From the NCBI GenBank assembly GCA_024679065.1, contig JAGIQG010000016.1, forward strand, positions 31,000,001 through 31,064,000: a DNA stretch of 64,000 nucleotides, in the 5' to 3' direction. This DNA comes from Sphyrna mokarran. Its lineage: Eukaryota. Below, one piece after another: positions 47,301 to 64,000 of the stretch (within the stretch, counting starts at the first letter, position 1; every line of letters begins with the position of its first letter). The notes beneath the pieces were generated by a model that saw nothing but the letters and a program-made list of their open reading frames with translations, was not told where the DNA came from and ran no database searches. Made by a program: the position numbers and the translations under genes.

Positions 47301-48280
47301 TGTCAAGCCAAAAGTAAATTAAGATTGAGAAATGTTTCCGAACTGTATAGCCATACAACTGGCAGTTTCAATTCTCAAGAATAAATGTTACATTAGAAGC
47401 AAACTCCTAAGCTATAATGTAATCTAATTACTTTGCTTCATTATGCAAATGTTGACAGTTGCCCGTGATTTACCGCCATCACTACTTTGCATTTTAATTT
47501 GGTTTATCGTAATCTGCATATGTTTTGTTTGGCTGTGAAGTGAAATATTTTTGGGTGTAAGATAGGATGCTGTATGGATAGGCACCTCTTTATCCACAGA
47601 TTCATCCAAATTTAATTTGCCATGTTACTAAAATGTTATAACAGGGGGACACCGACATGTACCGATTAAAATGCTCCACATTTGTGTTGCTATGTGTTTT
47701 CAATATTGGGCCTGGCTCACAAGGAAATCCTCAGTTATGCAGGTGACATGCTTCATGAATCTTCAGAGCCCTGAGAGGAGCATCTCTGGATGTAAAACGA
47801 GCTCGTCAGACTCCGTGTGTAGAAAGGAGAGAAGTTATTTTCAAATTTGATGAGCTTGAAGCAAACCATTGCTTCTTAAAAACTCCACAGTATCAAAGAA
47901 TTGCATTTCTTTTCTGTCTTAGAAAGTAATTATCTATTTATGATCTGAATTGTATGGAAAGGTAGTGGCCTAATGGTATTATTACTAGATTATTCATCCA
48001 GAAACTCAGCTAATGTTCTCAGGACCTGAATTCAAATCGTGCCATGGCAGATGGTGGAATTCGAATTTCATTAAAAAAATATGAAATTAAGGACCATGAA
48101 ACCATTGTCTATTGTCAGAAAAACACATTTGGTTCACTAATGTCCTTTAGGGAAAGAAATCTGTCACCCTTACCTAGTCTGGCCTAGTGATGATGTAGAG
48201 ATGCCAGCATTGGACTGGGTAAACTGAGTAAGAGGTCTGACAACATCAGTTTTAAATCCAAATGATTTATTTGATAGTAA

Positions 48281-48321
48281 ATTTGCTAGCTTTCGGCCTT
48301 TGTAGCCTTCGTCAGGCGAAT
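48281..48321 (-). ncRNA. Minimal type I hammerhead ribozyme motif
   Basis: AUUCGC-CUGACGA-A-GGC-UACAAAG-GCC-GAAA-GCUA^GCAAAU: intact core, stem I and stem II pair, palindromic AGCU in place of stem III. Confidence 0.75.
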
Positions 48322-48420
48322 GAGGTGTTCTGGTCTGCAATAGCACACATATCAGCACAGACAGTTCACAGATTGAACTGTCTGTGCTGATATGTGTGCT
48401 ATTGCAGTCCAGAACACCTC

Positions 48421-48461
48421 ATTCGCCTGATGAAGGCTACAAAGGCTGAAAGCTAGCAAAT
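48421..48461 (+). ncRNA. Minimal type I hammerhead ribozyme motif
   Basis: AUUCGC-CUGAUGA-A-GGC-UACAAAG-GCU-GAAA-GCUA^GCAAAU; predicted cleavage after 48455. Confidence 0.7.
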
Positions 48462-49763
48462 TTACTATCAAATAAATCGTTTGGATTTAAAATTGGTGTT
48501 GTCAGACCTCTTACTATGTATGATTCCAGAACCACAGTAATGTCGTTGACTCTGACCAAGGGCAATCAGGGATGGGCAATACATGTTGGCCAGCCAATGA
48601 CACCTATGTCCTATGAGCAAATAAAAAATAAGAATTTAAACACTGGGGAGTTGAGGGGGTGTAGGGGATGCGGTGGAAAGTGCTGGTCACAGTGGTGGCA
48701 TTGGAGGTGGGTACCATTTCCACATGAGTGACATGTAGCTGGCCAATCAATGGACTGACCAGGGAGGGAAATGAGACCCTGATCAGTGCCAACAGATTGA
48801 AAGGCAGCCATTTTTAAATTGTTGCCTGTCCTTCATACAGTGTTACTTTGTTACTGAAGATTCCATCAGCATCAGTGCTGAAGACCCTGGTAGTTAAGCT
48901 CCGGAATTCTCCACCCATGTGGATCAACTATAGACCCAATCGCTGGAATTCTACTTTCCCGCTGGCCACATAATTGGAGCAGGCGAGGGGCAGACAATAG
49001 ATATGTTCATTGACCTCGGGCAGGATTTTCCAATCTCGAGTCGAGCAAGGCCATAAAATCCCACCCACTGTGTGGACAGAGAAGCTGCTAAACCATGACA
49101 GGTGGGAGCCATATGTGGAACCAAGGCTTAGTGATAAACTTCCTTGCAGTTCTCTTCCAGATTGCATGAAAAATGCAGAAGCTTCTTTTGCCGTGGGATA
49201 ACAAGAGGAGCCTGACTCGACCAACACAGAGGGTATCTTCCTGTCATTGTGGCCTATTGAAATAAGCTGTCTGGTAATTCACCCAGGTCTCCAGTAACTG
49301 CATGCTTGCCCAGTTCCTCTCTTATTGCACCATTAGGTGCATCAGGCAGGCGCGGGGTTTACTGTCACTCATAAATTCTGAGAGTTTGCTGTTTCTATCT
49401 TTTGCTGCCCCTTCCTTGCCCTCATAAGGACACAACAAATAGGAGCAGGAACAGACCACATGGTCGGTTAAGTCTAGTCCATCATTCAATATGATCATGG
49501 CTGATCTTGGTGTTTACCCTCTACTCTTCATATCCCTTAATTCTCTGAGAGACCAAAATCTGTTTATCACAGCTATAAATATATTCAATGATGGAGTATC
49601 CAAACCCTCTGGGGTAGAGAATTATGAAGATTCTCAATCCTTCCAGTGGAGTAATTTCTCTTCATTTCAGTCCCCCTATCCTGAGTCTATGTTTCCATGT
49701 TTTAGACTCCTCACGTGGTGGAATCAATCTCTTAGCATTTACTCTATTAAAATCATAGCATCA

Positions 49764-52520: not shown

Positions 52521-53714
52521 TCAATCCCTTCATCCCAAGAGCCAACCTAGTGAAATATTATAATCTGGTTCCTCCTCCATCAATCTGCCAAAGACACTAC
52601 CTCCTGCATGTGAGGGTTTTGGGTTAATTTAAAATACTAATATAGCCTCTCCTGCATGGCAGTATATCATAGTCTTGCTGAAGTAAATGGCAAATTAAAT
52701 AGTGTGCTGCATTCATCAGGGTGGGTGGGCGGACATGGGGATGGTGGCAGAGATATGCCATGATGGGGCAGTACAGTCCTGGCCACTGTTGCCCTTTTTA
52801 ACTAGCTAACATTTTGAATCTGACCTGGTTTCATCAGATAATTTGCATAACAGTGATATGTGAAATCCGCGAGTATTGGACACAGTTTGCCTGTGGAAGG
52901 ATACAACATAATTCTATGAAAAATCTGGTTATTGGACATGGTGGATTCCATTATTACATCATTTTCTGCCAATTTATGTGGCGGAATCTGGACAGTAGAC
53001 CATGTAATGGTCACGTAATGGCCCTGCTACAAAAATGATCGTTTGGCCAGCATGTGGAGTTTTCCCCGGGAGCATGGGCAGAGTACAGCCATGAAGTACC
53101 TGCTCAGCTGGGGAATAAATGTTTGTTACAAGACCTTGTTATCAGTGCTTGGAAACCCAGCATTTCCATATAGACATTCAGCAGGGTATGTATCACTGAC
53201 AATGAATCTTTATTTTAATCTTTGAAAGACTGTTTTGACTTACCCTTAAATCAATCTTGCATCAGAATTAAAAATCTGCCCCAGTTTGTTTTTGAATTTG
53301 ATGGAATTTATTACTGATTGCTGCAGTACCAATGCCAAGTATACCACAAAAGATATCTCTCTATACAAGGCAACATGCTCTGCATATCCACAAGATTGAC
53401 AATGTTAAAGGACAGAGCATTTGGAAAAGGTATACCTGAGGGAATACAGAAATCTTCAGATTCTGTCTTATTGACCACCTGCAGTTTAAGTTAGAAAAAC
53501 TTTGCGCACTCTCTGGCAGGGATAGAATGCAAAAAAAGAATGAAGGAAGGTAATTGAGTGGAGAAGATAATTGCGTGAGATAATTGAATGGTCTCCCTCT
53601 GCACTGTAGGGATTCTATGGGGCCGATTCTCCCATAGAATCGCGTCTCAGCCGATATGTGGGATTTGTTTTTACCACTGAAATAAAAACAGAAGATTGTG
53701 ATTGTCAATTTAGG

Positions 53715-54001
53715 ATAGAATCATACAATCCCTACAGTGCAGAAGGAGGCCATTCACCCATCTGTAATGACCATTGTCCCATCCTATCCCTGTATCCCAC
53801 ATACTTACCCTGCTAATCCCTGACACTAGGATCAATTTGGCGTCACCAATCAATCTAACTCACACATCTTTGGAGTGTGAGAGGAAACCAGAGCATACCC
53901 AAGCAGACACAGGGAGAAAGTGCAAACTCCACACAGACAGTGCCCCGAGACAGGAATTGAATCCAGGTACCATGAGGCAGCAGTGTTAACCACTGTGCCA
54001 T
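53715..54001 (-). mobile_element. HE1/V-SINE
   Basis: 'atagaatcatacaatccctacagtgcagaaggaggcc...gcagcagtgttaaccactgtgcca'. Confidence 0.85.
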
Positions 54002-54951
54002 TGCGCCATTTCCCTTATCAAAGGTGACTTTTTCCTTTGCGTCCACAGTCATCTTTGTGTGTTTCAATGACTGTGAAACTCAATTGCAGATGTGTGTTGC
54101 TTTCCACAGAGTGGGCAAGGTTGAATTCTTTGACTTTGTTGGGCTGCTCAATCTTTCCAATTTGCCTTTTGCCCTGAGCTCCTATGTTGTTCGCTGTTCG
54201 AAAGAAACAACACCATGAATTAAGATCGTTACCCAGGCAGTCCTTTCTTGCCCATTTTTTTCTCCCTCTCTATGGTAGTCACGTCACATTTCCTAAGGTC
54301 AACTCACAAGGAATCCTCTCAGCCTATTGCAAGAGGTGTTCAAATTAAAGATGTGAATGCATGATCACCTCAGGGATTTTATTAACAGCACGCTTACTAC
54401 ATGTCTGCTCCATCTCAGCTGGGCTCTGATGATGAGTCTTACAATTCACAGCAGAAGATAGGCAAACAGGGAAAAAGCTAACTTCAGAAATGGATCCTTT
54501 GTCTGGACTGAAAGCAGAGAAAAAATCAATTCCCCAAACAAACTAAGTTGGGGAAAGAGAGTGTGAGGAAGAGAAGGCAGGGGTCAAGATTCATAGCTCT
54601 TCTCTCGCGCCACACACAGGAGATCCTGCATCAAGTGCTTTGTACACAAGAGAGGGCGACCTTATCAAAAATATTCTCATTCCAGAATGGATGGGGAAAT
54701 GGAGGAGTTTTAGAGCCATTTTTTCAGCGAGGCCATTAGTCAAATCTAATGCACTCTATGCAAACAAAACCTTCAACCTGATTTCTGCTTGTATGGCATA
54801 GTGGGCGGAGTGTAGCTCACTCAAAATCTGGCTGATAGCAGAGAAGTGGGCAATTGCACATATGCAAGTTTCTGCTCTGAGAGCAGAGAGATGTCAGTAA
54901 GAATTTAGCAACACCAATTTATAATCCAACCGATTTATTTGATAGTAAAAA

Positions 54952-54986
54952 CGCGAGCTTTCAACACTCTGTGTCTTCCTCAGGCA
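54952..54986 (-). ncRNA. Minimal type I hammerhead ribozyme motif
   Basis: Exact mirror of 54998-55032. Confidence 0.7.
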
Positions 54987-54997
54987 AACACTGCATT

Positions 54998-55032
54998 TGC
55001 CTGAGGAAGACACAGAGTGTTGAAAGCTCGCG
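54998..55032 (+). ncRNA. Minimal type I hammerhead ribozyme motif
   Basis: UGC-CUGAGGA-A-GACAC-AGA-GUGUU-GAAA-GCUC^GCG; predicted cleavage after 55029. Confidence 0.7.
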
Positions 55033-55973
55033 TTTTTACTATCAAATAAATCAGTTGGATTATAAATTGGTGTTGCTAAATTCTTACTGAGTTCTTACCA
55101 CCCCAATCCAACGCCGGCATCTGTATATCATAGCAGAGAGATGTGTCAGTTTCTATGCTGCTGTAGTTAGCGGGCCTCCTTGGCCTAAAACCTGGTATAT
55201 CCCCAACCCCCCAACCTGCTACTGTGGGGCCCGCTGATATTTGTGACCCTCCTCGTTCTTCTGGAATGATCTTCCTCCCTGCTCCCCCATTCCCTACCCC
55301 CACTTCCAGAATAAACTTTAGGTTTGCACTTTTGTCCAACGTTTCTCTCTTAGCCGAGGTTGCTGAAACAGATTGATTGGTCGCTGTCTTATAGCTGTTC
55401 ATGGGAGCTTGCTGTGCAGAAAATGGCTGTCACCTCACCTACAATCCAATGTTGATTACACACCAAAAATACTTAATTGGCTGGAAAGTGCTTAGCATGT
55501 CCTGAAATGATGGAAAGTAAATATAAATACAAGTTTTTTATTAAATTACTCCCAATCTGGCTAATACTGAGTTCTTGCAAAATGTCAAATTTTAACCTAC
55601 CTTCTTTCTACTGTGAGGTCAGTAGATGCCCTACCATTGCGAAAAGAGGTTTGATAGCTAAAATACAAAATTATCATTTACCAATCTTCAACAAGGGGGA
55701 CTACTGACAAGCATGAGATATCAAGGTGGTCCCAACCGATACCATACCATCAGGAATAGGGTTCGCTGTCTAGAAGTGTTCTCTCTACTAGGATCATAGA
55801 AATGAGCCTTCATCCCATTATTTCCTGTGGTTCATGTTTTGGAATAGTGTAAAGAAGCGATGACGGAGAGATCAAATTGGAGAACAGGGAGAGCAATTGA
55901 AGTGGCAAATCAAAGTAAGTTCAGTATCACACTTGAGAACAGAGGACACATAATCAGCAAAGGTACCACTAGA

Positions 55974-63100: not shown

Positions 63101-63349
63101 CCTTGTTGAAAACATCTGTGAGAAAGCAAGTCTGGAGCTGTTTGTACAACCTACATTTTATTTGAAGCTTTATGATCCATTAAGTATTTCAGGAAAATGG
63201 GGGGAGAAAAGTAAAAGAAACTGCCTTTTCTCAGTCACAAGGGATTGTGTACAGACCTATAGACTTACAGCGACCCAGAAGAAAGCAGAGTTGAACTTAC
63301 CAACAATAACTCAAATTGCTGCACCTCAATTCACATTTAATGAATGCAT

Positions 63350-64000
63350 GATGTAGTATATATGGACTTTAGTAAGGCGTTTGATAAGGTGGCCCATGGA
63401 AGACTTCTACAGAAAATGCAGATGTGTGGAATAGAGGGTGATTTAGCTAATTGGATTAGGAATTGGCTGGCAGATAGAAGACAGAGGGTGGTGGTTGATG
63501 GGAGATATTCATCGTGGAGTTCGGTGACAAGTGGTGTGCCTCAGGGGTCTGTTTTGGGGCCCCTGCTGTTTGTAATTTTTATAAATGATCTGGATGAGGG
63601 TATTGAGGGATGGATCAGTAAATTTGCAGATGACACTAAAGTCGGTGGAGTGGTAGATAGTGAAGAGGGGTGTTATAGTTTACAGAGTGACTTGGACAAG
63701 TTGCAGAGCTGGGCCGAGAGGTGGCAAATGGAGTTTAATGTGGAAAAGTGTGAGGTAATGCACTTTGGCAGGAACAATAAATGTGTAGAGTATAGGGCTA
63801 ATGGTAGGGCTCTTAATAGTGTTGAGGAACAGAAGGATCTTGGTGTATGTGTCAATAGATCCCTGAAAGTAGGCAGTCAAGTGGATAAAGTTGTTAAGAA
63901 GGCATATGGAGTCTTAGCTTTTATTGGTAGGGGGATTGAATTTAGGAGCCGCAGCATCATGTTGCAACTGTACAAAACTCTAGTGCGGCCGCACTTGGAG
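63350..64000 (+). mobile_element. Young 5'-truncated CR1 LINE with an uninterrupted RT reading frame, running off the window
   Basis: 217 stop-free codons by manual translation: DVVYMDFSKAFDKVAHGRLL...VTSGVPQGSVLGPLLFVIFINDLD...SKFADDTK...WQMEFNVEKCEVMHFG...LYKTLVRPHLE. Not in the ORF track because there is no stop in the window. Confidence 0.95.

Follow-up and report, generated by a model that had tools for sequence, protein, structure and literature searches.

The window analysed here, a 64,000-nucleotide stretch of the Sphyrna mokarran genome (contig JAGIQG010000016.1, positions 31,000,001 to 31,064,000), contains a short palindromic insert framed by two plus-strand copies of a 12-bp target-site duplication (TSD), AGCAGAGAGATG, at 54882-54893 and 55132-55143, the sole 12-mer direct repeat at a spacing of 245-255 within the window. 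With element positions numbered from the C of CTGAGGA at 55001 as 0, the insert comprises an inverted, tailless arm (54894-54988, minus strand; element -5 to +89), which agrees with the end of the element at locus L050 at all 95 nt (100%), and a sense, tailed arm (54987-55131, plus strand; element -14 to +130), 99.3% identical to L050 over 145 nt. The arms meet head-to-head at a 2-nt microhomology, AA (54987-54988), the sense arm matching the element from 54987 and the inverted arm ending at 54988. In the palindrome, 54894-54988 pairs with a second 95-bp arm at 54996-55090 (plus strand) except for one mismatch, at 54931/55053, where a CpG has undergone a G>A change. The intervening loop, CACTGCA (54989-54995, plus strand), is native element sequence with no inserted bases, since the match of the sense arm to the element already begins at -14, and the two CTGAGGA cores start at 55001 (plus) and 54983 (minus), each 5 nt from the loop. 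An AATAAA lies at 55045-55050 (plus strand), and copies end 80 nt further on, without poly(A); the last 41 nt of the sense arm (55091-55131, plus strand) form a tail that ends in the AT of the parent start codon.

An initial annotation, made from the sequence alone, had described these arms, their mismatch, the 7-nt loop and its 5-nt distance from the cores, the one-sided tail and the TSD, all of which were confirmed. It had also proposed TCAGT as microhomology at the left junction. The pentamer is indeed present at the insert's left end and also in the right flank, where 2 nt separate it from the TSD. The focal site, CTG-N17-CAG, carries the half-site of the family target TG-N16/17-CA, and this explains the flanking match; the half-sites are CTG at 54877-54879 and CAG at 55147-55149 (both plus strand), separated in the empty site by a 17-nt spacer. 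True overlap between the tailless junction and the target is 1 nt (T), and TCAGT was rejected as junction microhomology.

A search for an autonomous Penelope-like element (PLE) with the same 3' end, as the annotation had suggested, found a Neptune-type element with an 893-aa open reading frame (ORF) encoding a reverse transcriptase (RT) and a GIY-YIG endonuclease (EN). The L050 ORF matches RVT_1 (E 7e-08) and, just below the Pfam cut-off, GIY-YIG (E 3e-04), with similar results for L222, and ADKGG, YIDD and a C-x4-C before YIG are visible in the translations. The RT with its DKG motif and the C-terminal GIY-YIG with its CCHH motif are those of EN+ PLEs, as are the partial tandems of the terminal pLTR, the inverted 5' copy, the one-sided 30-40-bp tail and the TSD. 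The RT-EN linker, CHSNLCKTC, conforms to the CX2-5CxxC motif of the Neptune clade (Craig et al., 2021, PMC8557442, in the part used here), a motif that Nematis shares. The monomer is about 3.03 kb long and circularly permuted, and two full-length candidates out of 20 keep the ORF uninterrupted; the 2.77 Gb genome holds 3,609 exact matches to a 21-nt tail pattern and 257 to the tail-ORF junction. Several full-length copies (among L149, L151, L158, L163, L166, L168 and L172) have a 5' pLTR 80-87% identical to the reference before an ORF 95-98% identical to it, which suggests chimeras or faster change of the pLTR. Judged by its sequence, the focal insert is a 5'-truncated, head-to-head insertion of this Neptune-type retrotransposon, and the PLE origin and extreme 5' truncation supposed in the annotation are borne out by the 99-100% identity of the arms to the element's 3' end.

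Elsewhere in the window, 48190-48501 holds a second, older head-to-head palindrome, which belongs to a sister Neptune family (79-85% identity) and differs in helix II; it is centred near -50, its minus-strand arm bears the tail, and its stretch upstream of the ribozyme is almost identical to that of the focal family. A 42-nt inverted repeat (86%) with a 102-nt spacer at 53578-53763 is probably an unrelated repeat remnant, and an open frame of 219 aa at 63344-64000 resembles a CR1/L2-type LINE reverse transcriptase.

Ribozyme motifs and recurrence of the palindrome

Each arm carries one minimal hammerhead motif, at 54998-55032 on the plus strand and, identical in sequence, at 54952-54986 on the minus strand (core 54983-54955). 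The plus-strand motif is type I, with a predicted cut at 55029/55030, and would need a dimer, by comparison with the minimal hammerheads described in the consulted part of Cervera and de la Pena (2014, PMC4209133). It consists of a 3-bp helix I, CUGAGGA, an extra A, a 5-bp helix II closed by G-U, and GAA-AGCU-C, so that the minimal core with its extra base after A9 and palindromic 15.2-16.2 is found as CUGAGGA-A...GAA-AGCU-C at 55001-55029. The pair G10.1-C11.1 is replaced by G-U in both focal arms, as in 45 of 61 sampled arms, the other 16 having C; helix I has only two pairs in 26 of the 61. Rfam gave no match in the window at the gathering score and, at E values up to 10, only generic hairpin miRNA models and no hammerhead family. 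With the motifs on opposite strands, any one transcript holds one motif and its antisense, and the RNA read through the site is predicted to form a 95-bp hairpin of -161 or -173 kcal/mol, depending on the strand. Each strand thus has a single predicted, dimer-dependent minimal hammerhead, locked in a hairpin, and the insertion product is probably inert.

The annotation had raised the possibility that the palindrome is a non-autonomous ribozyme mini-element, to be recognised, if it amplifies as a unit, by many copies sharing the CACTGCA centre. Such copies exist: the exact focal centre is common to 17 genome-wide, five of which share the focal haplotype and tail side and may form a small clade. 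As a group, however, the 17 span several subfamily haplotypes and are polyphyletic; 10 carry the tail on the loop-bearing arm and 6 on the opposite one, one copy being unclear, and they stand among 516 palindromes centred just before the ribozyme (a count for which slightly longer flanks were required). The 50 palindromes listed of these 516 have, by eye, about 37 different centres, the focal geometry accounting for 3 (with single-base variants) and the commonest for 5. Haplotypes are common to short and long copies, the short ones having no private variants, and the RNA of such a unit would fold into the single hairpin of -161 kcal/mol. Nor do the copies resemble a retrozyme family, being neither monophyletic copies of one fixed unit nor head-to-tail tandems with a dimeric ribozyme in cis, but head-to-head with one motif per strand. 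Recurrence of the same centre follows from the narrow zone in which arms end and from their joining at AA. Amplification as a unit is thereby largely refuted and in our estimation very improbable, and we are close to certain that the insert is what its sequence indicates and, at the same time, did not originate as a unit.

The description "very young" is valid in a relative sense only. Arm divergence is low (one difference in 95 bp) and the haplotype is young, but the copy is unexceptional: of 35 sampled copies, 18 show at most one change (0-1) between their arms, and the sample mean is 2.2. Substitution is slow in cartilaginous fish, and low divergence need not mean recent in years.

Arm ends and arm coupling

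A census of the family used 90 tail-bearing places, chosen by position from the first 100 listed, one of the first 91 being skipped as the same insertion as L128; five tandem-junction copies running on into the ORF were set aside, leaving 85. An adjacent inverted arm is present in 59. Most tailless 3' ends fall at +83 to +105, whereas most tailed ends fall at +127 to +130 or extend into the ORF by a few bases. The 5' arm ends pile up just before the ribozyme, 67 lying in -22 to +8 against 4 in -53 to -23, and palindrome centres counted genome-wide in 30-nt windows follow the same pattern (516 just before the ribozyme, 70 upstream of -28 and 74 around the predicted cut). The limit is sharp: short-palindrome arms that reach -21 stop by -24 at 29 of 30 loci (88 of 100 rows by eye). 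C-22/A-21 sits in TGCAGA, within a stretch nearly unchanged in the sister family at 80% identity, and this hexamer fits the initiator consensus BBCABW. A G, possibly cap-derived, was seen by eye at 12 of 20 arms ending at -21, about half being explained by the other arm. Resemblance to a splice acceptor (TTGCAG) had made a spliced exon another candidate for the limit, rejected on finding by eye no constant sequence before -22 in 100 rows. All nine RNA runs listed consist of contigs. Those of four runs, which are without visible molecule ends, cover the pLTR-ORF junction with no joint at the ribozyme or at -22; four runs compared with the tail and right flank gave no cover of the unique flank.

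Arm lengths are coupled, with both arms short in 37 copies, both long in 20 and one copy in each mixed class (57 of 59 coupled; Fisher p 1.5e-13). The further-reaching arm is the tailless one in 22 copies and the tailed one in 23, the two being equal in 14, and therefore in many copies neither arm can have been copied from the other. Both arms share a haplotype in 30 of 35 sampled copies (22% by chance), a figure that gene conversion between arms could inflate, and in L160 and L173 private junctions recur in both arms; together these support a common template for the two arms. L108 joins arms of two different subfamily haplotypes, which points to two RNA templates in what would be a minority of insertions; the arms at G000:C771:15333551 likewise differ in subfamily haplotype.

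Self-priming, in which one cDNA or antisense RNA folds back into a two-tailed hairpin and loses one tail at integration, has been proposed for PLE inversions (Arkhipova et al., 2013, PMC3846280) and, for the tail, by Craig et al. (2021, PMC8557442), in the parts of these papers used here. It accords with microhomology at joints (AA in the focal copy; TGCAG in 8 of 100 rows by eye), with arms mostly of one haplotype and with tails on both arms in L128, L132, L153, L160 and L169, and the 22/23 split would fit if trimming were random. A target-primed fold-back, however, predicts a tailed arm that is always longer; in 22 of the 59 copies it is the tailless arm that extends further 5', and these could not come from simple fold-back of a tailed cDNA, which was rejected in that form. 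With copies such as L108 that join two haplotypes, and a hard limit at -22 left unexplained, we regard fold-back in general as unlikely. Predicted hairpins at about -62 to -28 (z about -2.3) and -24 to -6 could allow a cDNA to fold back or, alternatively, could stall the RT. A stall at such structure or at a bound protein near the ribozyme, rather than at an RNA end, would also suit the spread of ends across 30 nt instead of a single base; yet both arms stop or both pass in 57 of 59 copies, the limit at C-22/A-21 is sharp, and a second passage through the zone stops less often, 3 of the 14 more-than-unit copies that reach -22 to +8 ending there against 38 of 74 (p 0.02). Stalling thus appears distinctly improbable.

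The same 3 of 14 argue against whole copying of a capped full-length mRNA as the one linear template of all copies, from which full-length copies should end in -22 to +8, and long copies therefore need a second class of template. This would likely be circular or tandem RNA, a template proposed in the consulted part of PMC4209133. Among tandem copies, L173:882-2334 (G000:C749) has about nine 155-nt units (+32 to +188) in tandem with one inversion, both arms having the same private junction no more than 3 nt from the predicted cut and the usual tailed and tailless ends, and looks like the product of a small circular or repeatedly copied template. Short tandems in L174:892-1283, L144, L146, L159, L160, L163 and L178 join the first ORF codons back to the pLTR at individual junctions. 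Array starts lie within 3 nt of the cut in L173 and elsewhere at +13, +13, -54, -105, +99 and +2. Run-off at the cleavage site was rejected as a source of the short class, whose arms contain the whole core. Among the 74 palindromes centred near the cut, about 13 of the 50 listed have, by eye, both arms at or past it, and cleaved RNA is therefore at most a minor template, in line with the biochemistry of Frangieh et al. (2024, PMC11167929).

Target sites and a proposed origin

TSDs of at least 9 bp flank 64 of the 85 census copies and measure 12-14 bp in 43 of the 64. After one spurious case was dropped, TG-N16/17-CA was found centred on the TSD in 51 of 63 empty sites, against 100 of 1,638 control positions (6%), with 32 TG-N16-CA and 19 TG-N17-CA; a C precedes TG in 39 of the 51 and a G follows CA in 31. 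The tailless junction overlaps the target by at least 2 nt in 22 of 42 gap-free cases, where 16% would be expected. Four independent insertions (L053, L075, L080 and L083) occupy nearly the same target in another repeat, with a TSD starting TAATCTAT; this repeatedly used hotspot conforms to TG-N16-CA.

Taken with the arm ends, these regularities make it fairly probable that the insert arose in one event, both nicks of a staggered cut priming reverse transcription and both cDNAs running off the front of the element RNA. Priming from two sides is in itself probable; that the run-off point is the transcription start, an RNA 5' end deduced from DNA copies, is a reading to which we lean only slightly. 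A dimeric GIY-YIG endonuclease would read TG-N16/17-CA and leave 12-14-nt 3' overhangs, one of which would prime at about +130 and give the tailed arm, while the other would anneal by 1-5 nt at about +83 to +105 and give the tailless one. The template would be uncleaved RNA with its 5' end at about -22, where transcription from the pLTR promoter probably starts; both cDNAs would stop after 100-150 nt at the template end and be joined after small losses, in the focal copy via AA. Parts of this scheme have precedents: a PLE protein cuts and extends both strands, with two start sites bounding the tail, on uncleaved RNA (PMC11167929), and an Inr/DPE promoter lies inside the Penelope pLTR (PMC2377424). 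Against it stand the predicted hairpins and the 3 of 14 long copies described above; moreover, the anole enzyme starts in vitro without homology and prefers ATT (PMC11167929), whereas short overlaps and a motif are found here.

A broader and much more tentative suggestion, which we think rather unlikely, is that the stubs are dead-end strong-stop products. A Neptune dimer on a symmetric site would prime both nicks on one RNA, and a linear capped transcript would offer start sites only in its 5' leader, hence run-off at -22; long and more-than-unit copies would need a circularised or tandem template, and the ribozyme would act as the switch from abortive to productive copying or back.

Comparison with known systems

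In LINE-1 twin priming, the second target strand primes internally by short homology and an inversion within the TSD results; the twin-primed pieces do not overlap, whereas both arms here copy the same RNA segment. Closer parallels are the EN+ PLE insertions with inverted pLTRs (Craig et al., 2021, PMC8557442; Arkhipova et al., 2013, PMC3846280), which, in the parts of these papers used here, share the 5' truncation, the adjacent inverted copy, the 30-40-bp tail at one end, the short TSD and the head-to-head joint. The layout of inverted stub, tail and TSD is thus already published, and the focal copy is ordinary debris. What differs from those accounts, as far as the same parts go, is that a large fraction of copies is reduced to about 240 bp, while the sharp 5' limit and symmetric target motif seen here were not found in them. 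The family-level clues are less ordinary, namely the symmetric target, the pile-up and limit of 5' ends and the coupling of arm lengths. The literature searched on PLE twin priming, target preference and run-off or head-to-head joints yielded no report of these results, the symmetric target and arm coupling included, though repeat databases or supplements may describe the target motif; the portion of PMC12910113 consulted held nothing relevant. Family statistics of this kind bear on how PLEs make inverted ends and tails, and a defined target, an RNA boundary and a coupling rule can be tested in the existing in vitro system; if a retrotransposon GIY-YIG selects a symmetric target by sequence, this would also matter for RNA-templated insertion tools.

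With the minimal hammerheads of metazoan PLEs, as the same part of PMC4209133 describes them, the motif shares the CUGANGA core, the extra base after A9, the palindromic 15.2-16.2, a short helix I and dimer dependence, and differs in having G-U for the conserved G10.1-C11.1 and a helix I of just 3 bp; that paper also records paired motifs on opposite strands at distances of 100-700 bp. Animal non-LTR retrozymes (bioRxiv 10.64898/2026.07.22.740005, in part) are likewise small, PLE-derived and hammerhead-bearing, but form head-to-tail tandems with families of their own, whereas the focal insert has its arms head-to-head and belongs to no separate lineage. A biochemical counterpart is the Poseidon PAc of Anolis (Frangieh et al., 2024, PMC11167929), with which the scheme proposed here shares two RT start sites bounding the tail, cutting and extension of both strands, a predicted dimer and an uncleaved RNA substrate. 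It belongs to another clade, prefers ATT and comes without a genome-wide account of arm coupling, and its ORF starts inside the ribozyme, whereas that of the present family starts at the end of the tail.
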